Assembly (NCBI RefSeq): GCF_054482525.1
Contig: NZ_CM137006.1
Direction: 5' to 3' (one strand)
DNA length: 64,000 nucleotides
In this document: positions 22,681 to 42,023 of the stretch, piece after piece
How positions within the stretch are numbered: position 1 is the stretch's first letter
Layout: every line of letters begins with the position of its first letter
The notes under the pieces: generated by a model
Told to the model about the DNA's origin: nothing
The model's database searches: none
Seen by the model: only the letters and a program-made list of their open reading frames with translations
Translations under genes and position numbers: made by a program

Positions 22681-22771
22681 ATGCTGGAAATTCTGTTTAT
22701 CAATTAAACTTCTGGCTAAATTGTTCTTATGCTTCTTTTTCCTCCTGAGGTGATCACGTGATGACAAAAAC

Positions 22772-23229: not shown

Positions 23230-23990
23230 TCGATTCTCATTATCATTCATGGCAAAAAAACAGCAAAAGAGGCCCTGGTAATGACTCCTGTCAGTAGTAC
23301 ATGTGTTTTCGATAAATGAACCAATGGCTTTTCGTGAATTTCCAGGGAGCGTAAAAAGTAAATCGTTTTCCGGGCAGGTCGTTTGATGTGAGTACGAAGT
23401 GTCAGATTGTTGCGCTCAATGCGCCGGGTAAATATCTTGCCGACAAGATGCTTATCCTGTGGCATTTCTCTGGTATAACTGCTCCGGTTGTCTCTGGTTA
23501 TCATGCCTGCGGAGAATGGCTTCAGGAATTCCGGCAACTCACGGCATGTTTCATCAGTGCGAGGACCAAAAGTGTAAGCCAGCACACCGTCAGCTTTGGT
23601 CTTATACGCGTACCAGTGCCACTGCTGACGAGCTTTGTTTTCGACAAAACTCCATTGTTCATCAAGTTCACAGATAAGTGCCACATCGACACTGGCGGCT
23701 GGAGATATGGTTACTTTACGTGGTGAGCGTTTTTTAAAGTGAGAATGACGGTGTTGATATCCACCTTCAGCGTTCTGGAGCTATCGCGAACCCCGGCTCC
23801 GTTATGAACCATTTCAACAATTTGCTCTTTAATGCCTGGTTTTCGGGTTTCGTAGATGTAATTCAGTTGAAATACACGTTTGCAGGATTAGCACTGGAAA
23901 CGCTCATGATCTGAGGTGCTGTGATCATAACGGTACACTTTATAGGAATTACAGCGGGGAGAATATACTGTAACTGTTGCCATATGGTCT
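23230..23990 (-). mobile_element. IS1-family element remnant (InsB-like ORF and InsA-like frame with premature stop)
   Basis: ORF 23247..23684 resembles IS1 InsB (ELDEQWSFV..., FTRRIERNNLTLRTHIKR); an upstream minus-strand frame starting MATVTVYSPRCNSYKVYRYDH is InsA-like but stops early; boundaries approximate. Confidence 0.45.
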
Positions 23991-24179
23991 CCAGATACCA
24001 ATAGAATACAACATTAATCTATCGTCAGAAGGCATCACCGGGGCCTTCTGACATAATCTGTTAATACGTGTACTATTACCCTGTTCAGAAAACATTGATT
24101 CAAAAATGAAAACCAGTTAACAGAAAAGCAAAATGATATAATGTTAAAATTTTATATAGTGCAATAAAAGGAGAATGTT

Positions 24180-25997: not shown

Positions 25998-26183
25998 AGA
26001 GTTAAACAGGCAAATTATTTTTTATAAAAAGGGGATTGTTAAGTAATCCCCTGTTAATCAAAATACGCTTTCCTGACGATCTGATAATTATCAGCTCAAT
26101 ACATTTGACATAAAAGCGGTTTCTTAATTACTACTGCTACGATCACATATCAAATCATGATCGTACAATATACATTTTCACTA

Positions 26184-27386
26184 TTATTTATTCACAATTT
26201 GAGACATCACATAATCCGCCCATGCCTGCATCATCGGTACACGCTGCTCCAGTAGATCAGTACGATGATATGCCGCCTCAACCTTATTTTTCAGCGTATG
26301 AGCGAGCGCCCTTTCCGCCAGATCCCGCGAATACCCCTGTTCGCTACACCAGTCCCTGAATGTTGAGCGAAAACCATGTGCCGTGGCAACTCGCCCCGGA
26401 ATGTCACTGACGGCTTTCTTTTTACGCAGAAAACTTGTCAACACCATATCGGAAAGGATCTGCTGCTTTCTGGGTGAAGGGAACACCAGTTCATCATGCA
26501 GGCCACGTATATTTTCCAGAATGTAAATAGCCTGCCGGGATAAAGGAACACGATGCTGTAGCCTAGCTTTCATTCTTTCTGCAGGTATAGTCCATACCCG
26601 CTTATGAAAATCAATTTCAGCCCAGCGCATTCCCCTGGCTTCGCCCGAGCGAGTTGCTGTAAGTATCACCATTAATAACAGTGCGCGGGTAACATTATAA
26701 GGTTCATCGGTATACACACTGGTCGCCACAAAAAGCGGTAACTGCCTCCAGGGCATTGCGGGTTGGTGTTCATCACGTCCTCTTGTCTGCTGAGGAAGCA
26801 AATGGTCAACCACATCAACAGGATTTGCTACACAAAAACCGTGCGCCCATCCCCACTGCATAACAACATGAATGCGCTGTTTAACCCGGCTTGCCGTTTC
26901 TGACAAGGTTAACCAGACTGGACGCAGTGTTTCTGCCACGTCCGCAGCCGTAATCGAATCCAGCGTTTTTGCTCCCAGTTGAGGAAACGCGTAATTCTCA
27001 AGCGTCGATAACCACTGCCTTACATGCTTTGGATTTTCCCATCCAGGAGACAGTTCTGCATGTACACGCCTGGCTGCATCGGCAAATGTTGGGATAGCGA
27101 CTTTCTCAGATTCAGCCTTTTTAATCTCCAGAGGATCATCACCTGCAGCAAGTTGCTCTCGCATTATCCGGGCAGTACGTGCAGCTTCAGCAATACTGAC
27201 CTCTGGGTAAGTTCCCAATCCAGCATTACGTCTTTTTTGTGTCACCGGACTTACATAACGAAAAACCCATTTCCCCCGCCCCTTTACTGAAGAAGGATGA
27301 AGGGTCAGTCCGGTAATTCCCCCATGGGGCAATGGTTTGTCATCAGGTTTGATATGTCTTGCTTTCGTATCCGTCAATACTGCCAT
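26184..27386 (-). CDS. int: tyrosine site-specific integrase (P4/CP4-57 IntA-like)
   Basis: 400-aa ORF with phage-integrase C-terminal catalytic region (...HGFRSTFRDW...LAHTL...AYHRTDL); N-terminus lies about 160 bp from the island-end direct repeats. Confidence 0.85.
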   Translation of the reverse strand: MAVLTDTKARHIKPDDKPLPHGGITGLTLHPSSVKGRGKWVFRYVSPVTQKRRNAGLGTYPEVSIAEAARTARIMREQLAAGDDPLEIKKAESEKVAIPTFADAARRVHAELSPGWENPKHVRQWLSTLENYAFPQLGAKTLDSITAADVAETLRPVWLTLSETASRVKQRIHVVMQWGWAHGFCVANPVDVVDHLLPQQTRGRDEHQPAMPWRQLPLFVATSVYTDEPYNVTRALLLMVILTATRSGEARGMRWAEIDFHKRVWTIPAERMKARLQHRVPLSRQAIYILENIRGLHDELVFPSPRKQQILSDMVLTSFLRKKKAVSDIPGRVATAHGFRSTFRDWCSEQGYSRDLAERALAHTLKNKVEAAYHRTDLLEQRVPMMQAWADYVMSQIVNK

Positions 27387-27546
27387 ACGCTAATTCCCGT
27401 CACTCTGGTATGCCATCCAGTATGCCATTAGTCTCTCGCTTCACTAAGAATACATTAGATAATATCGGACAACAAAAAGTGTAATACATTGTTTATAATG
27501 AAATTATATAACACCCCTGGATTAAGTCAGATTTATTTCAGGCGGT

Positions 27547-27606
27547 CCCCCTCACCGCCATATTCAAAGAAGAGCTCGTACGAAAGTGCGAGCTTTTTTT
27601 TCGCAT
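27547..27606 (+). repeat. direct repeat copy 1 containing a tRNA 3'-end-like motif (TCCCCCTCACCGCCA) and a terminator-like hairpin plus T-run
   Basis: Near-identical to 27724-27785 (one substitution and one indel); the ...CTCACCGCCA end resembles the acceptor/CCA end of tRNA-Ser. Confidence 0.5.
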
Positions 27607-27723
27607 ATTGCACTCCAGGGGGGATGAGAAGCCCCGACCGGGGTTCGACAACTGGCGCAGCCAGTTGGACAGACCACGAACGCAGTGAGTGGGCTGCCCG
27701 CAGGGCGAGCGAAGCGAGTCAAT

Positions 27724-27785
27724 CCCCCCCCTCACCGCCATATTCAAAGAAGAGCTCGTACGAAAGTACGAGTTTTTTTTCGCAT
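27724..27785 (+). repeat. direct repeat copy 2 containing a tRNA 3'-end-like motif (AATCCCCCCCCTCACCGCCA) and a terminator-like hairpin plus T-run
   Basis: See copy 1; this copy has a longer match to a tRNA-Ser T-arm/acceptor 3' strand, but no complementary 5' acceptor strand (GGTGAGG) exists upstream, so it is not an intact tRNA. Confidence 0.5.
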
Positions 27786-28083
27786 TTTATCTGCCTGTAC
27801 GGCAGTGAACGGTATAAAAATCGAGTTTTTCTTTCGGTTGGCTTTCTAAGCTGCCTGTACGGCAGTGAACTCAAATACTACACGTCTAGCCCGTTGTTAA
27901 TAAAGCAAAACCATCTCATTTTCCTGCTACCACCCTTTTTTATCCTTACCTTCCCGCAGCACTAATTATCAACAACTTACAATCATCATCAAAAAAAGGG
28001 TCTGAACCTCCTCCACCCCATAAATAAAAAGTCCGTAACCTCTTTCGAGATTACGGACTTCACCAACCTACCTAACAATTAGA

Positions 28084-30360
28084 TTAATGCGTTGCTTCCG
28101 CCTTGTGCTTTTGTGCACTCTGGAATCCGTAAGTCAGCTCATTTTTCTCTTTATCCAGCGCGACGGTGACCTGACCGCCGTCCACCAGCGAACCAAACAG
28201 CAGTTCGTTGGCGAGCGGTTTTTTCAGGTTGTCCTGGATGACACGCGCCATCGGACGTGCGCCCATTGCCCGGTCGTAACCTTTCTCGGCCAGCCAGTTA
28301 CGCGCTTCCTGGCTCACTTCCAGAGAAACACCTTTCTGATCCAACTGAACCTGCAACTCGACGATGAATTTATCCACTACCTGATGGATCACGTCGGTGG
28401 AGAGATGATCGAACCAGATAATGTTGTCGAGACGGTTACGAAACTCCGGCGTAAAGATCTTCTTGATCTCTTCCATCGCATCGGTGCTGTTGTCCTGGTG
28501 GATAAGACCAATCGATTTACGCTCAGTTTCTCGTACCCCAGCGTTGGTGGTCATCACCAATACCACGTTACGGAAGTCCGCTTTGCGTCCGTTGTTATCG
28601 GTCAGCGTACCGTTGTCCATCACCTGCAACAGAATATTGAACACGTCCGGGTGCGCTTTCTCGATTTCGTCCAGCAGCAGCACCGCATGTGGATGCTTGA
28701 TGACCGCATCAGTCAGCAAACCGCCCTGATCAAAACCAACGTATCCCGGAGGCGCACCAATCAGACGGCTGACGGTATGGCGTTCCATATACTCGGACAT
28801 ATCAAAGCGCAGAAGCTCAATGCCCAAAGCTTTCGAAAGCTGTACCGTCACCTCTGTTTTCCCGACCCCGGTAGGGCCTGCAAACAGGAACGAACCGACC
28901 GGTTTATGTTCGTGACCTAAACCTGCACGCGCCATCTTAATGGCTTCAGTCAGCGCCTCAATGGCTTTATCCTGACCGAAGACCAGCATTTTCAGGCGAT
29001 CGCCGAGGTTTTTCAGGGTATCGCGGTCACTCTGAGAAACACTCTTCTCTGGAATGCGTGCAATACGGGCCACCACGGACTCAATATCCGCCACATTAAC
29101 GGTTTTCTTGCGTTTGCTTACCGGCATCAGGCGTGCGCGAGCGCCCGCTTCGTCGATAACGTCAATGGCTTTATCCGGCAGATGACGATCGTTAATGTAT
29201 TTCACCGCCAGCTCTACCGCTGCACGCACCGCTTTTGCGGTATAACGCACGTCGTGGTGCGCTTCATACTTCGGTTTCAGGCCATTGATGATTTGAACAG
29301 TTTCTTCGATCGACGGTTCAGTAATATCAATTTTCTGGAAGCGACGCGCCAGAGCACGGTCTTTCTCGAAAATGTTGCTGAACTCCTGATAGGTTGTCGA
29401 ACCAATTACGCGAATTTTACCGCTGGAGAGCAGCGGTTTGATCAGGTTAGCCGCATCGACCTGGCCACCAGAGGCTGCACCCGCACCGATAATGGTGTGG
29501 ATCTCATCAATAAACAGGATGCTGTTAGTATCCTGCTCCAGCTGCTTGAGCAACGCTTTAAAACGTTTTTCAAAGTCGCCGCGATATTTAGTGCCCGCTA
29601 ACAGAGAACCGATATCGAGAGAGTAAATCGTACAGTCAGCCATCACTTCCGGCACATCGCCCTGAACAATTCGCCAGGCAAGACCTTCCGCAATCGCGGT
29701 TTTACCGACACCAGATTCCCCCACCAGCAGCGGGTTGTTTTTACGGCGACGGCAGAGAACCTGAATAGCACGCTCCAGCTCCTTCTCACGACCAATCAGT
29801 GGGTCGATTCCGCCCACACGCGCAAGCTGATTCAGGTTCGTCGTGAAATTCTCCATACGTTCCTCCCCACCAGCTTGTTCTTCGCTGTTTGGCTGGCTGC
29901 CAGGATCAGAAGACTGTGTCGGCTCGTCTTTACGCGTGCCATGAGAGATAAAGTTCACCACATCGAGACGGCTGACTTCATGTTTACGCAACAGATATGC
30001 CGCCTGCGACTCCTGTTCGCTAAAGATAGCGACCAGAACGTTTGCACCGGTAACCTCATTGCGACCGGAGGACTGGACATGGAAGACCGCACGTTGCAGT
30101 ACACGCTGAAAACTCAGCGTCGGCTGTGTGTCGCGCTCCTCTTCACTGGCAGGCAGAACGGGTGTGGTTTGTTCAATAAAGGCTTCCAGTTCCTGACGGA
30201 GCGCAACCAAATCCACAGAACACGCTTCCAGCGCCTCCCGGGCAGATGGGTTACTGAGCAGCGCCAGTAACAAGTGCTCGACGGTCATAAACTCATGACG
30301 GTGCTCGCGCGCTCTGGCGAAAGCCATATTTAAACTGAGTTCCAGTTCTTGATTGAGCAT
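28084..30360 (-). CDS. clpA: ATP-dependent Clp protease ATP-binding subunit ClpA
   Basis: ORF 28084..30375; protein begins [35 protein letters not shown]...; two AAA+ modules ([16 protein letters not shown]). Confidence 0.95.
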
Positions 30361-30390
30361 AGGCACCTCCCCCAATTTTTATGCCTGCAT

Positions 30391-30711
30391 TCAGGCTTTT
30401 TCTAGCGTACACAGCAATGGATGCTCATTCTCCCTCGCGTACTTGTTCACCATCGCCACTTTGGTTTCTGCAACCTCGGCGGTAAAGACTCCGCAAATGG
30501 CCTTCCCCTGGTAGTGAACAGCGAGCATCAATTGCGTTGCACGTTCTACATCATAAGAAAAGAATTTTTGTAACACGTCAATAACAAACTCCATCGGAGT
30601 GTAATCATCATTGACTAATATCACTTTATACATAGATGGCGGTTTTAGCGCGTCGCGAACTTTTTCTTCCGCCAGTTGATCAAAGTCCAGCCAGTCGTTC
30701 GTTTTACCCAT
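30391..30711 (-). CDS. clpS: ClpA adaptor protein ClpS
   Basis: 106-aa [50 protein letters not shown]...; immediately upstream of clpA. Confidence 0.95.
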
Positions 30712-30795
30712 TGTCAGTTATCATCTTCGGTTACGGTTATCGGCAGAACGCCCTGCCGCTGACAAGAGCTTATTTGCCTGACCAATCTACTCCAC

Positions 30796-30813
30796 ATGAT
30801 AGATAACTATCAT
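30796..30813 (+). repeat. putative attL core (ATGATAGATAACTATCAT), imperfect 18-bp direct repeat of 41786-41803
   Basis: 17/18 identity with the copy next to cspD; itself palindromic (ATGATAG/CTATCAT arms); lies at the left junction of the satellite-like element. Confidence 0.55.
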
Positions 30814-31497
30814 TTATATCATTTAGTTAATTAGTCTTTATTTTTCATTATGTTGCAAATAACAAGCCCGTCAAAAACAGTGATATTAACTACACCATTA
30901 ACTACACCGCTTCACGAACAATATCGAACAACCGCGAACAAAGATCAACACGCTTTAATCATTATCATTTTCCGGCTATCCGTCATGAAGCTGGTGGATG
31001 ATCTGCGTGGTGATTTCCACCATTCAGAGCAGGGGCGGTCATCATGACCATGCCATAACAAAAACCCCATATTCGTGGTTTTTCTGTGTCGGGGCTATTC
31101 TGCTGTTGCCGTGCTGGTGGATATTCTCCGGTATGCGGCTCCCCATATCGGCATCAGGCCCACCAGCGTGAAGCGTTTTTCATTTTTCGCGGGTATAAAA
31201 AATCGATGGGGCTGGCAGTCCTGAAGACGTCAGGGTACGGAGATTTGACCCGCCCCTCCCTGTGCATGAGCACAATAAGTAACCGAAGGCGGAATTCCGC
31301 CCTCGGTACTTACATATGAGAAACGATATTTCTTCCACCGATACCCTTTATTTGGGTATTGCGAGTAAGCCCCAAAATCTGGGTGTTACTCTTACTACCC
31401 AAACTACGGGTAGTTTCCGTAGTTTCATGGTCGAGTTGCAAATCTGCAACTCACCCACCAGCCAACGCAATTTTGCGTTATCGGGAATATCAGCAAG

Positions 31498-31785
31498 TTA
31501 CCGCCGCAGTCGTTCCGGCTTCTTCCACTGGTAAGTATTTTTCGCGCTCTCCCTCCGTTGTTGAGAACGGCGACGGTATGCCAGCAACTCAAGGACTCTG
31601 GTTCGTATGTTGCGCATATCCACGCCGTTAAGCTCAATACCATCACGGCGCATCACCTCAGCAACAACACGCGCGTAATTTTCAGCGGTGACTGTATCCG
31701 GCTGCGCGGCCTGTTCGTCAGCCAACTGGCTGATTCCACCAGCACAGCGGATTAATCGCAGTATTTCAGATTCGGTCATTATCAT
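31498..31785 (-). CDS. hypothetical protein (95 aa), packaging-module associated
   Basis: ORF whose start overlaps the small-terminase gene stop (4-bp overlap); function unknown. Confidence 0.45.
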   Translation of the reverse strand: MIMTESEILRLIRCAGGISQLADEQAAQPDTVTAENYARVVAEVMRRDGIELNGVDMRNIRTRVLELLAYRRRSQQRRESAKNTYQWKKPERLRR

Positions 31786-32270
31786 GCCTGTTTTGCGACC
31801 TCATTCACTACGTCATTTTTTACCATCCGGCTGATAATCTGATTACACAAATCGTCAATAATTGACTGCACTCTGTTTACTGCCATCGGTTTAAGCCCGG
31901 CATCACGTGCCAGAATATTGGGGAGTTTTGCCAGTTCCTCGCTTACGATTTCCCCCCATATAGCCATCTCTTTTCGCACATCATCGGCGGGTATGAGTTG
32001 CGCCGTTTCCTGTTCGAACTTGAGGCGTTCACGTTCGGACTGATACCAGGCCTTACGGTCATGTGGCTCCATTTCTTCCAGTGATGCCGGAACGGGAAGA
32101 TCAAGAAAACAGGTCAGAATGTCAGTCACCCGATAGAGTTTCAGCTTGTCATGCCCTCCGGCTGGCTGGATGTTTTTCAGCCTTGCCGCCGCAGTCTGAC
32201 GACATATTCCCGCTATCGCCGCCAGTTGATTAATGTTCAGCATCAGATTTTTCAGTTCTCGATCCATACC
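31782..32270 (-). CDS. phage terminase small subunit-like protein
   Basis: ORF 31782..32354; likely start at MDRELKNLMLNINQLAAIAGICRQTAAARLKN (HTH typical of TerS/Nu1-like proteins). Confidence 0.55.
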   Translation of the reverse strand, partial: GMDRELKNLMLNINQLAAIAGICRQTAAARLKNIQPAGGHDKLKLYRVTDILTCFLDLPVPASLEEMEPHDRKAWYQSERERLKFEQETAQLIPADDVRKEMAIWGEIVSEELAKLPNILARDAGLKPMAVNRVQSIIDDLCNQIISRMVKNDVVNEVAKQA

Positions 32271-32523
32271 CGCTCCAGAATGTTTTAAACATGCATCTTG
32301 CGAACAACTTTCAGAAGAGGTCAAAAAATGCGCTATATGTTGAGCATAAAACAAGCAAAATTAACATGCCAAAAATAAAAATACTTAAAATTCAATACAA
32401 TATGAAGATGATGATGACGAATGAAAATGCAAAAACTAGCCTTTTTCCGCGCCGCTCCCGCCCCGTGGCAGACCACTCCACCGGGAGGACCCGTAAAAAA
32501 GGCGGCTGTCGCCGCCCTTGTTG

Positions 32524-34437
32524 TCATGCTCCACTCGATTTCAGTAATCCGCGATAATCGAGGGCCGCGACACCTGCATCTATGCGCACTTTCCAGGCGA
32601 CACCATCAACAGTAAAGCCCACCTGCTCCTCAAGATATGGCGTATCCATACCATCAAGATAAGCGACTTCTATTGTGTCCATCCCCTTAGCTGCGGCTAC
32701 ATACCATTCCTTGCTATTGGCCTTATCAAGACGTGGCTCAACAATTACTTCTGCCATATCTTTCACCACGTTAATGATGCCGGGGTTCTGATTGATAGTG
32801 CTCTCATCACCAACCGGAAAGACTGATGACGATGACAGAATGGCGCGACGCGCGGCAGATTCCAGCGCGGCAGGGACCAGAACAAAAGCAGGGGTAATAT
32901 TCAGTGAGTCGCCGTTAGCATCCTCCTGGAGGCGCATCAGCTTACGGGCTTCATCAAGCCCCACCATGTCCATATCCTTCGCAATAAGATTTTTATGATC
33001 GGCATGGAATAACGCTTTACCATCCGTAAATTTGCCGTTGCTGGTTAACAGAAGATAAACCAGATTACCTACTGTTCTGGCGGCCGCACGCCCCATCGCC
33101 ATGGGGATTGTAGTTAACTGGGTCAGGTCATCGTTGATAATGGCCTGACGGGTAACAGAAAAAATATTACCGTATGTGGCCAGCGCAATAGGTACACCTT
33201 TATCGCTGGTGGTGATGTATTTATATTCCGCACCTTCCGGTACTTTATCCAGCTTTGAAAAACCATTCAGACCAACGCGCTTTGCTTCATGAAAGTTTGA
33301 AAGCGATCCGGTACGCGTCCATTTCTGGAACGTTTCGCCGCTGTCCTGCCAGCCTTTCAGCACTGATTTTTCAGCACCACCAGCCAGAATATGAGAAAAA
33401 TCGCTGCTGCTGTGTGTGAAAGCTGCATTAACGACCTGCGAGCGATTTAAAAAACTGCCAACACTGATACCACGATCAGTTAGTGATGCCTGGGCCATTT
33501 CAAAAAGGCTCATCATCGCGTAAGGATTTCCCCGCTCTGGGCGTTCATACCCAAGACGAGAATAAAGCCCCTGACGAATTGCATCGCCTGTTATGTTCCC
33601 GTTACCGGCATAAATATGAGTCGGGATATTTTTATTGGATGGCGTGGACTCGCGCCCCAGCTCGTTCAACAACTTTTCACGGGCCATCTCCGGTGTACAT
33701 GATGCATCCTCCAGGCACGCCATTTTGATCCCGTCGTAACGACTGCCGAACAGGCTAAACACTTCACTTATTCCGTTGATGCGCTTCTGTTCATTACCAG
33801 CAATATTGGCTGCTCCCTGTGGCGGGGTAATCATTCCTTTAATGGTTTCAGGCATGTGTGAAAAATCTCCTGTGCGTTTCGATTCAATTCGCGCCATTGC
33901 TGTGACAGATGGCAACAATTCATCAGCAAAACCGTGCTTAAGGCATTCTTTCCCGTCCATCCAGGTTTCATCTTCCAGCATGGCGGTAATTTCCTGTGCT
34001 GATTTGCCCGTTTTTCTGGCATAAGCAGGGACTAACACGGTTTCCACCTTATCCAGCAAATCAGCATAATCACGCATATCACCAGCATTTCCGCCAGAGA
34101 TACCCCACGGCTTATGTATCATCATCATGGCGTTTTCCGGCATCACAACACGATCGCCAGCCATTGCGACAACCGAAGCCATTGAAGCCGCAACACCATC
34201 GATATAAACCGTAATTTCTGCCGGATGATTCCGTAACAGGTTATAGATGGCGATGCCTTCAAACACGTCACCACCTGGCGAATGGATCCGCAGGTCGATA
34301 TGTGAGACATCGCCCAGGGCTTTCAGGTCTTCCGCAAACTGCTTCGCGGTAATACCGAAGCCGCCAATTTCTTCATAGATGGATATTTCTGCCGCTCCGC
34401 GAACACCCAGCGCCTTAATGGTGTACCAGTGATTCAT
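32524..34437 (-). CDS. fusion of ClpP-like prohead protease and HK97-type major capsid protein
   Basis: 637-aa ORF; N-terminal about 190 aa resemble ClpP/S14-type serine protease (HSPGGDVFEGIAIYN...MASVVAMAGDRVVMPENAMMMIHKPW); the remainder resembles HK97-fold major capsid proteins. Confidence 0.65.
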   Translation of the reverse strand: MNHWYTIKALGVRGAAEISIYEEIGGFGITAKQFAEDLKALGDVSHIDLRIHSPGGDVFEGIAIYNLLRNHPAEITVYIDGVAASMASVVAMAGDRVVMPENAMMMIHKPWGISGGNAGDMRDYADLLDKVETVLVPAYARKTGKSAQEITAMLEDETWMDGKECLKHGFADELLPSVTAMARIESKRTGDFSHMPETIKGMITPPQGAANIAGNEQKRINGISEVFSLFGSRYDGIKMACLEDASCTPEMAREKLLNELGRESTPSNKNIPTHIYAGNGNITGDAIRQGLYSRLGYERPERGNPYAMMSLFEMAQASLTDRGISVGSFLNRSQVVNAAFTHSSSDFSHILAGGAEKSVLKGWQDSGETFQKWTRTGSLSNFHEAKRVGLNGFSKLDKVPEGAEYKYITTSDKGVPIALATYGNIFSVTRQAIINDDLTQLTTIPMAMGRAAARTVGNLVYLLLTSNGKFTDGKALFHADHKNLIAKDMDMVGLDEARKLMRLQEDANGDSLNITPAFVLVPAALESAARRAILSSSSVFPVGDESTINQNPGIINVVKDMAEVIVEPRLDKANSKEWYVAAAKGMDTIEVAYLDGMDTPYLEEQVGFTVDGVAWKVRIDAGVAALDYRGLLKSSGA

Positions 34438-34643
34438 TGCTCCCCCCCAGATGCAAAACCATTCTTATCAAGCCACGCGTTAACCGCGTGTCTGACAATC
34501 TGCGCCGCACCTGGTAATGGTTGGTCAGGATGATGATTTATGTGGTCGATCCTGTACTGCTTAAGGCGCATAACGGTCTGCGCATCCAGATGAACGGAAC
34601 CACCTTTTACCTCGCCTGTGTTCAGGTCGTTAATACAATTCAC
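34434..34643 (-). CDS. hypothetical small protein (69 aa)
   Basis: Stop overlaps the capsid-fusion start by 4 bp (translational coupling). Confidence 0.4.
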   Translation of the reverse strand: MNCINDLNTGEVKGGSVHLDAQTVMRLKQYRIDHINHHPDQPLPGAAQIVRHAVNAWLDKNGFASGGEQ

Positions 34644-35066
34644 AGTAACTTCCTCTTACTGACTAAACTGCGCGCATTATTGATCGATAAAAGTGGTAGA
34701 TAAACATATTTCTATCATAAAAATAGATTAATCAGATTCAGACACAAAAAAGCCGGAGAGAATCCGGCATAAATATCCCGCCATCTGAACACGTTTTGCA
34801 CAGGCAACTCCATCTGGCAGGTGAAAAACAAATTTATTTATATATTTCAATTAATTGCAAACTGGTCTAATGACAGGGAGAAAAAAATATTGTACAGGTG
34901 AAAACAGAAATAACTTTTAATTATCAATAAATTACTACACATGCTGCCGCCGCCATGAAAATGCAAAAACCAGCCTTTTTCCGCGACGCTCCCGCCCCGT
35001 GGCAGGTCACTACACCGGGAGGACCCATAAAAAAGCCGGATTGCTCCGGCTTCTGTTACTCGTTGC

Positions 35067-35489
35067 TTAAAACGGTATGTTATCCCCGTACGGATCATCA
35101 TTTCCCGCCTGTTGTTTTGCTCTGCTCAGTGCATCAGTAGCCTGCCCCTGTTGGCCTTTTTTGCCGCCCGGTCGCGCCGTTCTCGCACTGATTACGCTGT
35201 CTGCGATAACCTGCCAGCCCTGCCGCGTCTCCCCGTTCTGTCCGGTCCACTGGCTCACCTGCATGTTACCCGCCACGCTCAGGAGTTCACCCTTGCGGTG
35301 CTTTGCCAGTGCTTCGGCCTGTCTGCCAAACGCCAGGACGGATAACCACATCGTCGCCGTTCCGTCATCTGCCTGGCTGCACGGAAGTGGGACCGCCATA
35401 CTCGCCATCGTCATTTGTGTACCCTTGCTGGTGGTCTTTAACTGCGGGTCAGCCACCAGCCGCCCGTAAGCCGCTATCTGTGCTGTCAT
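35067..35489 (-). CDS. ssb: single-stranded DNA-binding protein (SSB-like)
   Basis: 140-aa ORF with OB-fold-like N-terminus, Gly/Gln-rich linker and acidic tail ending DDPYGDNIPF (SSB C-terminal DDDIPF-type motif). Confidence 0.65.
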   Translation of the reverse strand: MTAQIAAYGRLVADPQLKTTSKGTQMTMASMAVPLPCSQADDGTATMWLSVLAFGRQAEALAKHRKGELLSVAGNMQVSQWTGQNGETRQGWQVIADSVISARTARPGGKKGQQGQATDALSRAKQQAGNDDPYGDNIPF

Positions 35490-35731
35490 GCTGTCTGCTC
35501 TCCGGTTTTAACGTTGATGGTTGTCACCTGTTCCGCTTCGGCAATCTCCCGTTCTGTCAGCGTGGCAAAGTTTGCAGCTGCCGTTGTCATGAATGAGCTA
35601 ATCAGTTCGGGATGTGCTTTCGCATATCCTTCCCCGGCGTTGCGGTCGATGATTTTTATCGACACCCTTAACCAGTGTTCCGTCAAATCAAGGGCGTGCG
35701 ATTGTGATTTTTTTGTGTGCTTCGCTGTCAT
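35486..35731 (-). CDS. hypothetical small protein (81 aa)
   Basis: ORF with a 4-bp overlap to ssb; sits between the iteron origin and ssb. Confidence 0.4.
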   Translation of the reverse strand: MTAKHTKKSQSHALDLTEHWLRVSIKIIDRNAGEGYAKAHPELISSFMTTAAANFATLTEREIAEAEQVTTINVKTGEQTA

Positions 35732-35782
35732 AGGCTTTATCTCACAGCAGTAAATTAAAATTTTTGCGTTTTAACCCTTCAC

Positions 35783-36005
35783 CTGTTCACCTTTTGATAT
35801 TTTATCTTTTAATTCATAATGTTAAGGGGTGAACAGTTTCACAAAAACTATTCACCAACTGTTCACCACTGTTCACCCTTGAAGCTCAATAAACAATCAA
35901 AAAGGTGAACAGTGAATAGTTTGGTGAACAGTTCATAAATAACTGTTCACCCTATAACATACTGATACAAAAGATATTTATGACAGGGTGAACAGTGGTG
36001 AACAG
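35783..36005. repeat. iteron cluster, putative replication origin (9 copies of GTGAACAG/CTGTTCAC)
   Basis: 8-mer copies at 35783, 35829, 35859, 35869, 35905, 35924, 35943, 35988, 35998 in both orientations within an AT-rich tract immediately downstream of the primase gene. Confidence 0.6.
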
Positions 36006-36018
36006 TTATTCCATAAGT

Positions 36019-37851
36019 TTAATTTTTGCTATCGTCATTAGTGACCGATACACATGATGGCATCCAGTCTTCTGATTCCTCCGTCAGTGTCACGTTTGAA
36101 CGCAAACCGTGCTTCGTTTTCCGTTTCATATACTCCCTGCCATATTCCGCCATTGCCCCCGGCATATCTTTACCGAAGCGCGTCAGTGTTACAGGTTTAC
36201 CAAACCCATGTGCCCTCATATAAGCCAGATAGGCATGATAGAGATACCTGCGTGGGCTGAATGGCACAATTTCAGCATTACCCACTAACAGGCCATCACA
36301 CATTACCGACGCCATGAGATAGCCGCAGAAGTCCACCAGCGAATCACCTTCACGCTTTATCGCGAGTGCTTCTTCTGATTTCTGCTGCTCATATAAAAGG
36401 CGTCTGGCTTCGTCCTGGTCAGCAAACCGTGTAAGCAGATGGCGAATCACTACCGCCAGCTCACCTTCTATTTTTTCCGCCAGCATTGGATCACGTTCGT
36501 TCTCCGGTACAACTTCCGAAAAATTGAATATCACCCGACGACGTGAGATCCCCCCGCTGCGGTCACTGAATGACATGGCGTTATTGTTAACCGCCAGCAC
36601 TACTGCCGGAATACGCGTTGAGTAGGGGGCTTTGTGTTTCGGGTCAATTGCCACCTTGTCACCGCCTGTAATAGCCTTAATCCCTGCCCCATCACCAGCG
36701 TAGCGGGTCATATCCGGCATGATAATCAGCGAAAAGCCAACCACTAACGCGCGTTCCCTTGCATCTTCCAGCGCCTTCATGCTTGCCGATACTGTGTTGG
36801 CCTTACCCGCCAGCATGGTGCAAATCTCCGCCATCACGCTTTTACCACTTCCCCCTGGACCTGTTACCTCAATGAATAACTGCCAGTCGTACCGGTTCGC
36901 CAGCACCATGAATAATGCAGCCAGTACGCGATCCGCCTTGCGGTCATTCTCAGCCACCGAACGGCGTAACCACTTCCAGAAATTCGGCGCATGTGTTGCC
37001 AGCGTTTCCCCCTCTGCTGGTGGGCTGAAAGGTAATTCACTGGCAATTAACAACCAGTCGTTTTTGTTATGCTCCCGAAAATTACCTGTTCTGGTATCAA
37101 ATACCCCGTTACTGAATCCAATCAGGTTACGGGCTGTATTCCCCATTACAGGCAAACTTAACTTCATGGTATCGACCGCCGATTTAATGGCGTTCTGCGA
37201 ATAGCTGATCTCCGCATCAATGAAAATCTGTGCCATAGCTCGCTGTAATTCTTTATCCTGTACTGGCTCCCATACAACGCCGTTGTAATGGTGAACAGTG
37301 TCAGAGTCAGCATGAATCGCCAGTTCACCGCCATAATGTGCCAGGAGAACTTCGCCGCGTTGACTTGCTCCCATCTGGTTAAGCGCCAGTGATGAAGCGT
37401 TATCGTCTTTTACCCGCTCTTTTTTCTTTACAGGCAGTTCAACTACCTTTTTCTTTTCCGCCAGCTCTGCCCGTTCACGTTCCAGATATTCGCGCCAGTT
37501 CTCCCGTTTCTGGCTGTGCATTCCTTCAGGGTAATAATCAGCATCCCTGACACCTGCCGCTGCCAGTTTCTGCCCGATGGTATTAACAAGCCCCGGACGC
37601 AATAACCCCGCCTGATAGAGACGCACGCGATAGCGTCCGTCCGGTACGATTTGCAGGTTGTCCAGTTCGGCAAGTTGTTGCTCTCCAAGCCAGACAGGTG
37701 GCACGTTATCGCCAGCCAGTCGCCCGTCCTGTTCCTGCCACTGATTCGCATGTGCCCACGCATCACTACCCGCAAAAATGATGACTTCCGTCATTTTGTC
37801 ACGCGGCTGGTGTTTTAAATTTGGCGCTTTTTTCATTTCTGCTCTCTCCAC
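36019..37851 (-). CDS. primase / replication initiator (Pri-Rep-like, P-loop NTPase)
   Basis: 610-aa ORF; P-loop GPGGSGKS; overall resemblance to P4 alpha / PICI Pri-Rep proteins (primase C-terminal plus D5-like NTPase). Confidence 0.7.
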   Translation of the reverse strand: MERAEMKKAPNLKHQPRDKMTEVIIFAGSDAWAHANQWQEQDGRLAGDNVPPVWLGEQQLAELDNLQIVPDGRYRVRLYQAGLLRPGLVNTIGQKLAAAGVRDADYYPEGMHSQKRENWREYLERERAELAEKKKVVELPVKKKERVKDDNASSLALNQMGASQRGEVLLAHYGGELAIHADSDTVHHYNGVVWEPVQDKELQRAMAQIFIDAEISYSQNAIKSAVDTMKLSLPVMGNTARNLIGFSNGVFDTRTGNFREHNKNDWLLIASELPFSPPAEGETLATHAPNFWKWLRRSVAENDRKADRVLAALFMVLANRYDWQLFIEVTGPGGSGKSVMAEICTMLAGKANTVSASMKALEDARERALVVGFSLIIMPDMTRYAGDGAGIKAITGGDKVAIDPKHKAPYSTRIPAVVLAVNNNAMSFSDRSGGISRRRVIFNFSEVVPENERDPMLAEKIEGELAVVIRHLLTRFADQDEARRLLYEQQKSEEALAIKREGDSLVDFCGYLMASVMCDGLLVGNAEIVPFSPRRYLYHAYLAYMRAHGFGKPVTLTRFGKDMPGAMAEYGREYMKRKTKHGLRSNVTLTEESEDWMPSCVSVTNDDSKN

Positions 37852-38132
37852 GCGGCAATCATGTTTTTCAGTTCCTGTAGTTTTTTATCAACATCCATAC
37901 ATGACACATGGTTATTTCTGGAAAGCGGGATTTCCCGCCTGAATCTGCTAATAAAGATCTCCACGTTCAGCGAACTATGAAATGAATAGCCATCACGAAT
38001 AAAATACACACGGTCAAACATCAGTTCTTTTACCGTTACTCTGTTACCGTTCTTATCCAGATAAATAGCGCCGGGGATAATTTTGGGGTGTGCATAACCG
38101 CTGGCAGTCAAGCCAGATAAATATGTTCTCAT
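37833..38132 (-). CDS. hypothetical protein (99 aa)
   Basis: ORF overlapping the primase start; unknown function. Confidence 0.4.
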   Translation of the reverse strand: MRTYLSGLTASGYAHPKIIPGAIYLDKNGNRVTVKELMFDRVYFIRDGYSFHSSLNVEIFISRFRREIPLSRNNHVSCMDVDKKLQELKNMIAAWREQK

Positions 38133-38138
38133 GATTAT

Positions 38139-38459
38139 TTATCCCCGATTTGAATCAGTATTCGCTTTCTTTATGGCATTTAATGCATCTGTGGCATTTT
38201 CAATGGTGCACCGTAACGAAATATCAAACTGCCCAAGCATTGCCAGTAACAAACCGATATTACCCATATCAATGCGCATAGCCTTTTCGTCATAGTCCTC
38301 ATTTTCTGACGCATGCCACATCAGGCTACCAATTGACGCAATACCCATTGATATATTGTCAGTAGCCCCATCCGCAGCGGAATAAACCTTTTTAGCAATA
38401 TCATGCTCACAGTTAAAATGCGGATTAATCAGGTACTGGTAATTTGACATATCAGGCAT
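38139..38459 (-). CDS. hypothetical protein (about 106 aa, [10 protein letters not shown]...)
   Basis: C-terminal part of ORF 38139..38894 from an internal ATG; the upstream part of that ORF is Pro/Arg-rich and looks like an off-frame artefact. Confidence 0.4.
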
Positions 38460-38991
38460 GGCACACCCCCTGGCGAATACGGGCGGCGAATACAGCAACA
38501 CAACCGGACGGGCAGCGGTTACGCGCTTCACGTTCCGTCCAGGCGGTGACGTGGATGATTTGATGGTCTGACGCGCCAAAGATGATAAAGCGCCAGAGAA
38601 AGGCGGTTTGAGAATGTACAAGGGTAGGGATAGTAGCCATGTTGGCAGCCTCCTTTGACAGTGAAGAATTTCCACCGCAGGAAACGCCAATTTCGCTGGC
38701 GGTGGACTGAACGGGGTTGGCGTAACCGGCGTCAAAGGGAACCGGCGCTTCCGAAGAAGCCCCCGCCCAGCCCACCATAACTTTGATGTGAGCGAATGCG
38801 GACGATAAAAAAGACGCTGGCGCGTCATATATCGCCTTTGACATTTCCAGGACGCCAATCCCGGCACCAGATTTTGCTGGTGCGGATAAATCATAGCCCT
38901 GGCTTGCAGTGGCGATCAACTGGTTTTTTACACCCGCTTTATTCAGGTTGTGCGAGTCCCGCCCTTGCGGGTGTGTGGTATGATTTCTCAT
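38452..38991 (-). CDS. hypothetical protein(s); contains an internal SD-preceded start (MATIPTLV... at 38640) that may define a separate 62-aa gene
   Basis: 3' part of ORF 38452..39741; AAGGAGG precedes the ATG at 38640; the N-terminal 250 codons of the 429-aa ORF overlap the operator region and plus-strand genes and are treated as spurious. Confidence 0.3.
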
Positions 38992-39088
38992 AGCGACCTC
39001 GATACTATCGTTATCGTTGGTGGTTAGAAGCCCCGTTACTGCTCCAACAGTGCGGGGTTTCGTCGTTTCTGCACCTTGCATCAACAAG

Positions 39089-39140
39089 GTGTTGAACACC
39101 AATGTAAACTCAGGTGTTGAACACGTCAAGTGTTGAACAC
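39089..39140. promoter_or_regulatory. three perfect 11-bp palindromic repeats GTGTTGAACAC (putative operator sites) in a divergent promoter region
   Basis: Copies at 39089-39099, 39114-39124, 39130-39140, between the minus-strand gene block and the plus-strand small gene at 39191. Confidence 0.55.
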
Positions 39141-39190
39141 TTGTTTTTTTTCCTGCATACTGCATTTGTTTTTTGTGAGGGGTACACAAC

Positions 39191-39370
39191 ATGGCGACAA
39201 AAGCAGTAAACGCAAAATCACAAACAGTTGCGGCAAGGGTTCCGCATGAAGTTATGAACAATGTTGAGGCGGTAAAAATGCCTGGTGAAAGTACAGGGCA
39301 ATTTGTAACAGCAGCATTAAAGCGAGAAGTTGAATACCGCCAGCGACGCAAGGCTAAAGAGCAAGAATAA
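39191..39370 (+). CDS. small basic protein (59 aa), putative DNA-binding regulator
   Basis: My translation [59 protein letters not shown]; GAGGGG before the ATG; below the ORF-track size cutoff. Confidence 0.45.
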
Positions 39371-39427
39371 TCACTATCAGCGCTGTGGTGTGAGGTACTC
39401 CGGCGCATTGCTTTACAGGTCGGCACT

Positions 39428-39637
39428 ATGAGCAAAAAATACCTATCCACTGAAGAGATTTTCGCAGAACAACGAAGATTGCTTTTACAGAGCATTGTTG
39501 CACGCCAGAAAGAAAAGGCACACGCTAAACAAATGCCACCAAATACAGAACCAGCGCCTACAAAATTTGCGCTTGATGAGTTTCTCAATAAACAGCCCCG
39601 GGTAATGAAAGCTAACAGGAACCGCCCACCAGGCTGA
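39428..39637 (+). CDS. hypothetical small protein (69 aa)
   Basis: ORF-track entry; weak ribosome-binding site; uncertain. Confidence 0.3.
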
Positions 39638-39751
39638 TCACATTGCCCACCAGCCAGCAAATCGCTATGATGGCTGGGCTTATGTTTAGTGTATTCCCAC
39701 TGGCGACCTCTGATCCGGGTCGCCTTTGTTTTATGTGTCATATGCCCCCCT

Positions 39752-39961
39752 TTACGCTGCCTTGCCTGAATTAATGCGATCCCGGCTTTTAACCCATTCC
39801 ATAACCTCGGACAGCAGCCAACCTACAGAACGACCGCCCAGATTACGGCGTGACGGGAAATTCCCTTTTTTCTCCAGTTCATAGCGTGTAGTGCGACACA
39901 CTCCAGTTAACTTACGACATTCATCCTCACGGATTACGCGATCTTCATTTATTTCACGCAT
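39752..39961 (-). CDS. alpA: AlpA-family transcriptional regulator / excisionase-like
   Basis: 69-aa [60 protein letters not shown]; AlpA-type HTH. Confidence 0.65.
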
Positions 39962-40380
39962 ACAAAAACCTACATAAAAAATTACGTATATAAACTTTTC
40001 TCTTAGCTGTAGATATATGAGATCGGATATTACTTAGATTCTTTTTTCACCTCTTAAATTAAAAACACAACCTTGCTAAAGGCTTTGTTCGCTAAGGTTC
40101 GTAGAAGCTCGTTAGTGTTTAAAATCGTGTCACGAGTTTTTAAGCGATGCAACAAAAAATGTCGTTATTTGGCATTACGCTTGAATTATCTCATTAAAAA
40201 CAAATAGATAAACCATCAAGTGTTGGAACAATCAAGAAACAGAGAATAAAAGTTCAGAAGAAGACATTCCAATTTTTTGATGGTTGACATATATAAAGCG
40301 AAGATATTTGCAGATATTTTCCGATATTCTACGATTTATTCACGGCTGTAATCTCTTAAAGAAAAAACAGCCGTAATTTG

Positions 40381-41619
40381 TCAAGAATTTTGGGTGTAAA
40401 TTCGCGGGGTCATAACAACGATTTTTTTATCATTGTTCTGGAGAAGCTCGAGACGGTCTACCCATAGATTAAGAGCATCACGTTTTGCATCAAGATAACG
40501 GGAGTGGTTATAGACTCGTTGCATCCCCGGCATCTGGTGGGCGGTAAGCTGCTCGACAATATGCGGATCCACGCCTAAATCGTTCAGCATGGTTGTAAAT
40601 GTGTGCCGGATATCGTGTAACGTCCAGGGGGCTTGATTAATTCGTCTGTGCGCTGTTCTTCCGTACTCTGCTACCGAAGATTGTCCTTTCAGTTCACCAA
40701 GCAATAAGCCTGTGTGTCTGTTCTGCTCCACCAGTTGCGTGACGAACGGCAAAATGCTTTCCGGTATTGGCCTGAATATGGCGACCTTCGTTTTGCTGTG
40801 CTCCTTCGGTACTGTCCAGAGCATTTCTTTAAAATCCCACTCCTGCACCTCAGAGCGCCTTAGCTCAGTGGTACGGCATCCAAAAACAATCAGGAGGCGA
40901 ATTAGGGCGCTGTAGTATGGCGGGAATATTTTGTCATCCAGGGCGCGGAGTAATTCCCCAAGCTCCTTATTTGTTAGTACGCGCTCGCTCACTTCTGCTT
41001 TTTTTCCCACATCACCGACAACCATATCATCAAGAACGTTGCTGATTGCGTATCGTCGTTTTCGGCAGTACTTAAGCGCCTGTTTGCATACCTGTAGCAA
41101 AAATCCGGCAGATACTGGGCTTCGCTTTGCCATCTGGTCAAAACATGCCAACCAGTGCCGTAGCTCGCATTTTTCCAACGGCAAAGCGCCAATCTGGCTG
41201 ATTATGTGTTTATTGATCCGGCTTTTCAGTGATTCGTAGTCAGTGCGCTTTTCCTTTGCATACGATTCAAGCCAGTAAGTGAGCGCTTCCTTAACTGTCA
41301 CGGGGGCTAACGCATCCTGTACAGCACGATTAAGCTCATAGCGCGGATTTTTCCCCTCAGCCAGCCAGGCGCGACACTGTGCTGCTTTTTCCCTGGCTGC
41401 TTTCAGGCTCAGATCGGGATAATTGCCCAGTCTCAGACGTTCCGGTGATACCTGCCTACCAGTTCCGGCCCTGTAAGTGAAATACCAGGTTAACAGGCCG
41501 CTGGTGGAATGTCTTACGCTAAGATTGCCACCGTCATTAAAAAAGGCGTTTTTTGTGGTTGGTGATCCGCTTAATTTTCGTAAAAGAGTGTCGCTAAGTC
41601 TATGAATTGCGCTGCTCAT
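40381..41619 (-). CDS. int: tyrosine site-specific integrase
   Basis: 412-aa ORF with phage-integrase catalytic region (...LHDIRHTFTTMLNDLGVDPHIVEQLTAHQMPGMQRVYNHSRYL); adjacent to the right att repeat. Confidence 0.85.
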   Translation of the reverse strand: MSSAIHRLSDTLLRKLSGSPTTKNAFFNDGGNLSVRHSTSGLLTWYFTYRAGTGRQVSPERLRLGNYPDLSLKAAREKAAQCRAWLAEGKNPRYELNRAVQDALAPVTVKEALTYWLESYAKEKRTDYESLKSRINKHIISQIGALPLEKCELRHWLACFDQMAKRSPVSAGFLLQVCKQALKYCRKRRYAISNVLDDMVVGDVGKKAEVSERVLTNKELGELLRALDDKIFPPYYSALIRLLIVFGCRTTELRRSEVQEWDFKEMLWTVPKEHSKTKVAIFRPIPESILPFVTQLVEQNRHTGLLLGELKGQSSVAEYGRTAHRRINQAPWTLHDIRHTFTTMLNDLGVDPHIVEQLTAHQMPGMQRVYNHSRYLDAKRDALNLWVDRLELLQNNDKKIVVMTPRIYTQNS

Positions 41620-41785
41620 GTTTCGCGTTTCCGGTCATCAAAATTAACTACACCATTGACTACACCGTGCATCGTACAAGGGCAAACCGTGACGAACAAG
41701 AGCGAACAAGGAAAACAAAATTTTCCTTTATAATCATAGCGATGAATGCACACAAAACACTACCACGAACACCCGCGAACACTAG

Positions 41786-41803
41786 ATGATAAATAACTAT
41801 CAT
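41786..41803 (+). repeat. putative attR core (ATGATAAATAACTATCAT)
   Basis: 17/18 identical to 30796-30813; lies between the integrase and cspD. Confidence 0.55.
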
Positions 41804-42023
41804 CTATCGTTGGCATCAGCGACATCTGTCACATTCCTGTCAATAGCGTTAACTGCTTCAAATTTTTGATTCATACCTGCCCCCTGGCCCCTGTCAAATG
41901 CTTGACGGCTCGCCCTAATTCTCTAAATTGTATTTCTAGAGTTGGCGAGGTTTTGAACAGCCCCCTCTCTGACCCCGGTTTATTCCATCTTACTTGTATA
42001 AGATTTGCGAAGGATGTCGAAGC

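Follow-up and report, generated by a model that had tools for sequence, protein, structure and literature searches.

Between cspD and clpS, the window analyzed here (the whole 64-kb stretch of E. coli DNA) carries a block of phage-like genes arranged in four zones in the order known from phage-inducible chromosomal islands (PICIs), i.e., Integration, Bro/immunity, Replication, and Late, with all core genes on the minus strand (Table 1). The integrase and the AlpA-family regulator lie together at one end and face inward, as in Gram-negative PICIs. A 69-aa hypothetical protein nearby was considered as a leftover gpW-like head–tail adaptor and rejected, as it showed no similarity to cdtI gp03. 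In the immunity zone, C4 and isrK-family RNAs correspond to the P4 CI/seqA-type immunity RNAs of Gram-negative PICIs (PMC10111431). A RefSeq “ash family” pseudogene overlaps these two well-scoring RNA genes and is probably no protein gene. Iterons were found immediately 3′ of the primase-replicase gene, in agreement with the placement of PICI origins 3′ of pri (PMC6092414), and this region is a probable replication origin. Family matches and annotation yielded no portal, large terminase, tail, or lysis gene in 30796–41803, and family searches with the left-arm ORFs gave no match. A PADLOC scan of ten island proteins for defense cargo returned nothing meaningful, and a neighboring I-F CRISPR locus, considered for self-targeting, has only one spacer, with no match among the sequences compared. 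Promoter and terminator scans gave no more sites than shuffled sequence did; individual sites of these types are therefore to be read as leads only.

Table 1 Features of the element and its junctions, in window coordinates. A dot marks features without strand.
Feature	Position	Strand	Details
attL core	30796..30813	.	chromosomal type, G at position 7; similarity reaches 30817
Left arm	30814..31497	.	684 bp, no supported gene
Promoter-like site	30874 to 30847	-	left arm, outward-facing, towards clpS
Arm-type repeat, left copy	30885..30908	.	ATTAACTACACCATTAACTACACC; in left arm
Strong hairpin	31282..31307		left arm
Small conserved late-zone gene	31498..31785	-	phrog_1561; RefSeq start 31779
Small-terminase (TerS) homologue	31782..32267	-	DUF1441, phrog_141, 161 aa; lacks the acidic C-terminal tail of phage proteins
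cos1	32268..32500	-	cosQ-/cosN-/cosB-like segments directly upstream of terS; predicted cohesive end GGGCGGGAGCGG, 32463 to 32452
ClpP-like prohead protease/scaffold/major capsid fusion	32524..34437	-	637 aa; NCBIfam NF045540, 904 bits vs cutoff 475
Small gene	34434..34643	-	phrog_4934; its end overlaps capsid gene start
cos2	34790..35026	-	predicted cohesive end GGGCGGGAGCGT, 34997 to 34986
Single-stranded DNA-binding protein (ssb)	35067..35489	-	family match
Small conserved gene	35486..35731	-	phrog_1231
Probable replication origin	35803..36020	.	eight GGTGAACAGT iterons, both orientations
Primase-replicase (pri-rep)	36019..37851	-	D5_N + DUF5906 helicase + Pox_D5; RefSeq start 37836
DUF4222 protein	37833..38132	-	99 aa; distant RgdR-family relative, PGA in place of RgdR's RGD
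Hypothetical protein	38139..38459	-	phrog_15327
Icd-like cell-division inhibitor homologue	38452..38640	-	
C4 antisense RNA	38695..38782	-	P1 c4/P4 CI type immunity RNA; Rfam 82 bits, gathering score 45
isrK-family RNA and terminator	38807..38883	-	relative of P4 seqA; Rfam 75 bits, gathering score 50
Promoter-like site	38919 to 38890	-	just upstream of isrK-family RNA
YlcI/YnfO family small protein	39191..39370	+	phrog_949; strand opposite to core genes
Hypothetical 69-aa protein	39428..39637	+	RefSeq annotation, no family match
AlpA-family regulator/excisionase	39752..39961	-	PF05930 Phage_AlpA, 3.5e-16
Tyrosine integrase	40381..41619	-	Pfam Phage_integrase + Arm-DNA-bind_3
Arm-type repeat, right copy	41643..41666	.	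ATTAACTACACCATTGACTACACC
attR core	41786..41803	.	element-type A at position 7; overlaps yljB stop codon (41800-41802)
yljB	41800..41874	-	24 codons; stop codon overlapped by att core

Attachment site and distribution

The block is flanked by two 18-bp direct repeats (ATGATAGATAACTATCAT on the left and ATGATAAATAACTATCAT on the right) where none would be expected by chance, and repeat similarity stretches to 22 bp with two mismatches. When aligned to K-12 DH5alpha, the left flank enters the core and the right flank leaves it, i.e., the repeats are at the junctions, and alignments to empty-site E. coli genomes stop at window position 41786. The span from flank to flank is 12,001 bp in the window vs 1,011 bp in a typical E. 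coli genome, which gives an insert of 10,990 bp. Comparison with island-free genomes therefore confirms both the empty site and the att core, and bears out the original prediction of an 11-kb element between 18-bp repeats. Based on the differences between attB (ATGATAGATAACTATCATCTAT), attL (ending TTAT), and attR (A at position 7), strand exchange can be placed inside ATAACTATCAT. The attP deduced from the sequence is ATGATAAATAACTATCATTTAT, and the junctions indicate that the integrase recombined this attP with the chromosomal site at the yljB stop codon.

Since the core overlaps this stop codon, the element sits at the 3′ end of yljB rather than in bare promoter DNA, 85 bp before the start codon of clpS; the earlier placement between cspD and clpS holds and is refined in this respect. 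The integration site is not undescribed, as had been supposed. The cspD-clpS interval is given as the att site of the PICIs EcCIIHE3034 and EcCI18098, with core ATGATAGTTAT (Fillol-Salom et al. 2018, PMC6092414, Table S1), and the crossover segment derived here is this same published core read on the opposite strand. A literature search on yljB or clpS promoter use found nothing usable, and text matches to “cspD” in satellite papers referred to the chemiluminescent reagent CSPD. The suggestion that the insertion may alter cspD and clpS regulation is a matter of geometry only: the cspD promoter-like site (41902–41929) and 5′ leader remain attached to cspD, and the 85 bp are the native sequence left upstream of clpS.

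Among 5426 complete E. coli genomes, 5424 matched the flanks but only 50 contained at least 80% of the block, and most have the site empty. The same integrase adjoins yljB-cspD in 364 of the 5426 (about 7%). The late module was found in 186 genomes and at several loci; other att sites, e.g., rcnR-thiM, carry these modules too, in varied genomic backgrounds from many hosts.

Packaging genes and proposed life cycle

The island DUF1441 protein is 65–71% identical to phage DUF1441 TerS and had no PDB sequence match to RppC or lambda Nu1, nor detectable sequence similarity to any solved structure. We considered whether it might be an Rpp protein (RppA/B/C are 144–153 aa, with a winged-helix domain mimicking lambda TerS); a comparison by sequence lent this reading no support and instead matched the protein to phage DUF1441 TerS. 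In the capsid fusion, the ClpP Ser and His are kept and dN/dS is about 0.08, indicating purifying selection. The two cos sites resemble different phages: cos1 is similar to the mEp460, phi458, and 569R4 group (cos1 and terS together are 74–81% identical to the mEp460 group), and cos2 shares 92.4% identity with the cosQ-cosN-cosB region of phage cdtI across 237 nt. The cdtI record begins with GGGCGGGAGCGT and finishes with CCACG, and cos2 similarity spans that junction. By homology, the two cos sites would be packaging signals, and the TerS homologue a packaging protein, matched to a helper.

For the steps from induction to packaging, we draw on the Rpp work and on EcCICFT073, a relative studied by experiment. 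A lambdoid helper would turn on alpA; the island would excise, replicate from its own origin, and make concatemers, which the helper large terminase would cut at the island cos sites, and packed heads would use the portal, head-completion proteins, and tail of the helper. Likely helpers would be cos phages with a DUF1441 TerS–TerL–portal–protease/capsid fusion module, such as mEp460, phi458, cdtI, and some Stx phages; no resident helper prophage was located in the 64-kb window. A cdtI-type terminase would read cos2 directly, and the reading of cos1 would go through the TerS homologue of the island, which, given its missing acidic C-terminal tail, may need to pair with helper TerS in the manner of Rpp proteins. 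The capsid fusion might build or remodel heads or interfere with helper head assembly, and this step is the least certain.

A bolder reading, which we hold tentatively and regard as rather doubtful, is that the late zone, of a type shared with the PICI EcCI224, defines a “half capsid-forming” PICI between classical PICIs and capsid-forming PICIs (cf-PICIs). Such an element would make its own self-processing protease-scaffold-capsid shell and take portal, large terminase, head-completion proteins, and tail from the helper. Its two cos sites, with different cosB specificity, would hedge two helper groups, cos2 working directly with a cdtI-type terminase and cos1 via the tail-less TerS homologue, Rpp-like, with mEp460-type helpers.

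Class assignment and alternative readings

Evaluated against the definition of Gram-negative PICIs (Fillol-Salom 2018) and the four-zone layout of PMC10111431, the block is very probably an integrated Gram-negative E. coli PICI, a mosaic of EcCIIHE3034 and EcCI224 types that would be mobilized by a helper as proposed above. Its 10,990 bp fall within PICI size (about 8–15 kb), it has att repeats at a PICI-used site, and it encodes its own primase-replicase with a repeat-rich region directly 3′. Packaging functions comprise the TerS homologue and two cos-like sites, as judged from homology to cdtI and mEp460, and the virion gene set is incomplete, with no lysis or tail genes. The gene content agrees with the original prediction (genes for integrase, AlpA, primase, SSB, capsid/protease, and small terminase, without portal, large terminase, or tail), and the helper-dependent PICI-type satellite it proposed is supported.

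Alternatively, the block could be what is left of a prophage or island in decay that has lost its mobility and become fixed in its lineage, with the phage-like genes as leftovers. We consider this improbable. It would fit the “ash family” pseudogene call by RefSeq, the fact that no helper has been identified for the window element, and the low transfer of both published islands at cspD-clpS, as marked EcCIIHE3034 and EcCI18098 transferred from native strains only at very low frequency (Fillol-Salom 2018, PMC6092414). Given such very low transfer, a suitable helper may be missing for some members. Conversely, all core genes are intact and the capsid fusion is strongly constrained, the pseudogene probably is no protein gene in the first place, and both the recurrence of the modules at other att sites and the predominance of the empty site argue against immobility. 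In addition, the database record of a sibling with 96.7% identity is a circle of 10,790 bp with its junction exactly at attP. An artefact of assembly could account for this record, and such closure at attP is the only indirect hint of helper-dependent induction, packaging, and transfer.

A P4-like satellite with a P2-type helper appears very improbable. Although the P4-type integrase fold, AlpA/Vis-like regulator, D5-type primase-helicase, and CI/C4-type immunity RNA are all reminiscent of P4, no sid, psu, delta, or epsilon homologue was found among PHROG, NCBIfam, and RefSeq names, both cos sites and the late genes find their counterparts in lambdoid cos phages, and a published comparison sets E. 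coli PICIs apart from P4. The element also lacks a P2/P4 cohesive end: with this pattern as query, the single match had 3 mismatches and lay at 51071, outside the island. Least probable of all is a cf-PICI that would build and load heads of its own and depend on the helper for tails alone, since large terminase, portal, head–tail adaptor/connector, and HNH are all absent, even though protease, scaffold, and major capsid protein are encoded in one gene and a small terminase is present as well.

As a Gram-negative PICI, the element is an ordinary example of a published family. It matters little as a discovery: the 2018 reference set already contained the family, att site, and late module, and the site is occupied in about 7% of complete E. 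coli genomes. Its value lies rather in illustrating how modules are shuffled among such islands, with the integration zone from one E. coli PICI type and the replication and late zones from another. New details are the integration at the yljB stop codon, the cos sites resembling different phage groups, and the attP-closed sibling circle; the first of these, the apparent match of the two cos sites to different helper groups, and the TerS homologue without acidic tail are testable. For the question of what capsid genes do in PICIs, the strongly constrained protease-capsid fusion offers a reasonable test case.

Comparison with known satellites

EcCIIHE3034 and EcCI18098 share att site, core, gene order, and orientation with the window element, at 10.5–10.8 kb compared to 10.99 kb here. 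The integrase/alpA zone of EcCIIHE3034 is 97% identical, and its left end is 98% identical over window positions 30296–31167. However, its primase allele is diverged from that of the window, and its late zone comprises a capsid gene of the lambda-E type, a gene for decoration, another “terminase small subunit” (with no significant similarity to the island TerS homologue), and a lambda-type cosN (GGGCGGCGACCT), where the window has a protease/capsid fusion, DUF1441 TerS, and GGGCGGGAGCG(G/T) cos sites. In its replication and late zones the window element is of the type of EcCI224, an E. coli PICI at frmR(rcnR)-thiM (PMC6092414, Table S1): its late zone is 95.1% identical over 31127–35126, including the protease/capsid fusion, DUF1441, two small genes, and both cos copies, and its replication zone is 99.0% identical over 35710–38493. 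In turn, EcCI224 has another integrase (about 70% nucleotide identity), alpA allele, and att site, an extra DUF6387 gene, and no annotated SSB gene. Taken together, an EcCIIHE3034-type integration zone joined to EcCI224-type replication and late zones makes the window element a mosaic of published types.

The experimentally characterized EcCICFT073 resembles the window element in having an int-alpA-pri layout transcribed in one direction, with the origin 3′ of pri, as well as two cos sites (documented as functional in EcCICFT073) and a capsid-protein homologue, and its helpers are lambdoid cos phages. It uses an Rpp protein (RppA) and a lambda/phi80-type cosN, whereas the window element has a near-full-length DUF1441 TerS homologue and a capsid gene that includes the protease. 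The capsid genes of EcCICFT073 are dispensable for transfer and lambda interference, so that any role of the capsid fusion here is only putative. SaPIbov5, from a different phylum, is similar in combining a satellite-encoded major-capsid homologue (Ccm) with helper-type cos sites; there, Ccm makes small heads for the cos-packaged island.

The insertion site and its surroundings

Two 18-bp direct repeats, of which none is expected by chance, bound the island between cspD and clpS. Alignment with the K-12 DH5alpha locus established both as true junctions, i.e., the clpS-side flank enters the left repeat and the cspD-side flank exits the right one. The original prediction of an ~11-kb element bounded by these repeats had its coordinates right. 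The flanks were matched in 5424 of 5426 complete E. coli genomes and ≥80% of the block in only 50. Since the usual genome spans 1,011 bp across the locus and the window 12,001 bp, the insert measures 10,990 bp. A further search put the break in empty-site alignments at query position 887, equivalent to window position 41786, where the right repeat begins, confirming the empty site and att core in island-free E. coli.

The att similarity covers 22 bp in full. The attB sequence is ATGATAGATAACTATCATCTAT. Position 7 is still the chromosomal G in attL, whose last four bases are TTAT; in attR it is A, and the last four bases are CTAT. These differences place strand exchange inside ATAACTATCAT. The core shares bases with the stop codon (41800-41802) of yljB, a gene of 24 codons, which puts the island at the 3′ end of yljB and 85 bp upstream of the clpS start codon. 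The chromosomal core (30796-30813 of the window and 997-1014 of comparison sequence L002) is a near-perfect palindrome at that stop codon, ATGATAG-ATAA-CTATCAT, and may be an inverted pair of integrase core-binding sites or a native regulatory site. In addition, an arm-type repeat, (T/A)ATTAACTACACCATT(A/G)ACTACACCG, occurs near both island ends. At 25 of 26 bases it is the reverse complement of the “att site core” listed for EcCIDI14 in the 2018 Table S1 (PMC6092414), an entry that may denote an integrase arm site, not the crossover core.

As to a conjectured effect on cspD and clpS regulation, the insertion separates yljB from clpS by 11 kb; the cspD leader and a promoter-like site stay on the cspD side. 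A sigma-70-like site at the left end (10/12, TTGACG-16-CATAAT) faces clpS, 136 bp upstream of its start codon. From its sequence, this candidate promoter could replace the upstream promoter input to clpS lost by the insertion, with promoter-like site counts no higher than in shuffled sequence. Elsewhere in the window, between tRNA-Ser and clpA, a type I-F CRISPR-Cas locus (18912-27871) shows signs of decay, with a frameshift in cas6f, a stop codon within csy2, and only two repeats and one 32-nt spacer left (27783-27870). The RefSeq “CRISPR” feature at 27424-27871 is mostly a ~180-bp duplicated segment instead.

Gene content and predicted packaging sites

The island holds a complete PICI (phage-inducible chromosomal island) core, the supported core genes all on the minus strand, and the proposed classification as a PICI-type phage satellite was right. 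Annotation and family searches of the island found no portal, large terminase, head-tail connector, tail, holin, or endolysin gene, bearing out the claimed absence of the portal, large terminase, and tail genes; no recognisable defence cargo was found in the island.

Features of the island and its borders, from the cspD side to the clpS side
Feature	Position	Strand	Remark
cspD promoter-like site	41902-41929		
Right 18-bp repeat (attR core)	41786-41803		cspD side
Arm-type repeat, right copy	41642-41667		
Tyrosine integrase	40381-41619	-	arm-binding domain
AlpA-family regulator	39752-39961	-	
Two small genes	between alpA and isrK RNA	opposite to core genes	one YlcI/YnfO
Promoter-like site, then isrK-family RNA	RNA 38807-38883	-	above Rfam gathering score
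C4 antisense RNA	38695-38782	-	above Rfam gathering score
Icd-like gene, then small gene	after C4 RNA	-	small gene without assigned role
DUF4222 protein, 99 aa	37833-38132	-	distant RgdR-family relative
Primase-replicase		-	domains D5_N, DUF5906, Pox_D5
Eight GGTGAACAGT iterons	just 3′ of primase-replicase		
Small gene and SSB	after iterons, before late zone	-	
94-nt direct repeat, copy at cos2	34955-35048		predicted 12-nt end 34997-34986
94-nt direct repeat, copy at cos1	32421-32514		predicted 12-nt end 32463-32452
Arm-type repeat, left copy	30884-30909		
Candidate promoter facing clpS	30847-30874	-	
Left 18-bp repeat (attL core)	30796-30813		clpS side

The DUF4222 protein is 33% identical to the RgdR-family copy of the published island EcCIIHE3034. 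In place of the RGD motif of the LEE-activating RgdR it carries PGA, and it may not share that activity. A single 429-codon open frame (38452-39741, minus strand) opens just after alpA, spans both the isrK and C4 RNAs, and reaches into the Icd-like gene, recalling the P4 eta/CI arrangement (PMC10111431). The RefSeq “ash family” pseudogene (38671-39192) is part of this frame; RNA is the likelier product of that segment, whose upstream portion lies antisense to the YlcI/YnfO gene. Public annotation at 34434-34703 looks like a strand mis-call: the RefSeq plus-strand ORF (34530-34703) is without family support, and a minus-strand ORF (34434-34643), overlapping the capsid gene start, matches phrog_4934 (E 5e-30).

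The capsid gene encodes a 637-aa protein scoring 904 bits against NCBIfam NF045540, “ClpP-like prohead protease/major capsid protein fusion” (cutoff 475). It aligns collinearly with mEp460 gp05 (57% identity), with the serine and histidine motifs of ClpP retained and 29 linker residues missing; its best phage relatives (55–57% identity) are mEp460, mEp043, mEp213, cdtI-like, and several Stx phages. The dN/dS of ~0.08 across four satellite copies indicates that the fusion is maintained. The 161-aa DUF1441 protein is 65–71% identical to the small terminase (TerS) of the mEp460/PhiR40 group.

The two copies of the 94-nt direct repeat, 88% identical, are predicted to mark two cos sites. One, cos2 (35026 to 34790), is 92.4% identical to phage cdtI across the junction between that record's end (...CTGCCACG) and start (GGGCGGGAGCGT...), spanning the cosB region and 24 nt of cdtI terS. 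The other, cos1, lies directly upstream of the island terS and is 74–81% identical to its counterpart in mEp460, phi458, and vB_EcoS-569R4. Phages of the cdtI and mEp460 kinds are the probable helpers. The published island EcCICFT073 has two experimentally shown functional cos sites, and its multimers were reported to be packaged into full-size heads. Such packaging of island multimers would fit the genome sizes, with four island genomes at 43,960 bp versus 44.5 kb for mEp460 and 47.0 kb for cdtI; small heads are possible instead.

Distribution, possible excision, and proposed life cycle

Across genomes, the late module was found in 186, at several loci, and the integrase adjoined yljB-cspD in 364 of the 5426 complete E. 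coli genomes (6.7%). Near-identical islands were present in strains of human, poultry, pig, sheep, dog, and river-water origin. In GCF_037543765.1, a sibling island (96.7% identity) was deposited as a circular 10,790-bp “plasmid” (L013, NZ_CP148328.1) closing exactly at attP, TATAA-ATGATAGTTATTTATCAT-CTAGTG. A second, 42.4-kb “plasmid” (L014, NZ_CP148327.1) is made up of chromosomal genes that run from the tail region of a P2-like prophage as far as cspD, beside which it stops exactly at the att core. This suggests that the sequenced culture was a mixture of excised and integrated forms; an assembly artefact or mis-labelled contigs are possible. Marked islands at cspD-clpS have shown low-frequency transfer only, from native strains (PMC6092414).

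Sibling islands also carry genes absent from the window copy. In L013 (8473-9173), the capsid gene and terS are separated by a “tail assembly protein” and a tail-protein fragment, which may represent a Tai-type (tail-assembly-interference) defence; in comparison sequence L007 (7665-8378) a HEPN-domain gene replaces SSB.

Judged by sequence, the island integrated site-specifically at yljB, its PICI core is complete, its cos sites are of helper type, and its late genes are constrained. By analogy with studied relatives, a lambdoid helper would activate alpA, and the island would excise, replicate from its own origin, and be cut at cos by the helper large terminase, with cos2 probably read directly by a cdtI-type terminase and cos1 probably via the island TerS homologue. 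Because this homologue lacks the acidic C-terminal tail of mEp460 and cdtI TerS, it may have to pair with helper TerS, much like Rpp. The capsid fusion may build heads, resize heads, or disturb helper assembly; its role is the weakest step of the mechanism, since the EcCICFT073 capsid genes are dispensable.

Relationship to published PICIs

The integration site had been thought undescribed, which was wrong: Table S1 of Fillol-Salom et al. 2018 (PMC6092414) gives “cspD-clpS” as the att gene of EcCIIHE3034 and EcCI18098, with the core ATGATAGTTAT, the reverse complement of the exchange segment derived here. EcCIIHE3034 has the same gene order as the window element, with 97% identity at the int/alpA end and 98% at the left end, but its primase allele has diverged and its late zone differs, with a lambda-E-type capsid gene, a decoration gene, and another packaging protein. 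EcCI224, a reference PICI in the same table located at rcnR(frmR)-thiM, shares the ClpP-protease/capsid fusion, the DUF1441 gene, and a small late-zone gene, with 95.1% identity across 31127-35126 and 99.0% across the replication zone (35710-38493); the late zone is an already published type. Two published types are therefore joined as a mosaic in the window element, with an EcCIIHE3034-like integration end and EcCI224-like late and replication zones.

Strain Ecol_224 (NZ_CP018948.1) holds a pair of related islands that share this late module (1961620-1972242 and 3324576-3334973). One is the published EcCI224 at rcnR-thiM; the other matches the window element at its integrase end and is thus presumably at cspD-clpS.

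Overall, the window element is real, with boundaries and general classification correct. Its layout is the Integration/Bro/Replication/Late scheme of Gram-negative PICIs, for which C4 and isrK matches have been reported as related to the immunity RNAs CI and seqA of P4 (PMC10111431). Its site and all its modules are already described, to which the predicted dual-specificity cos sites and the tail-less TerS homologue make modest, testable additions.
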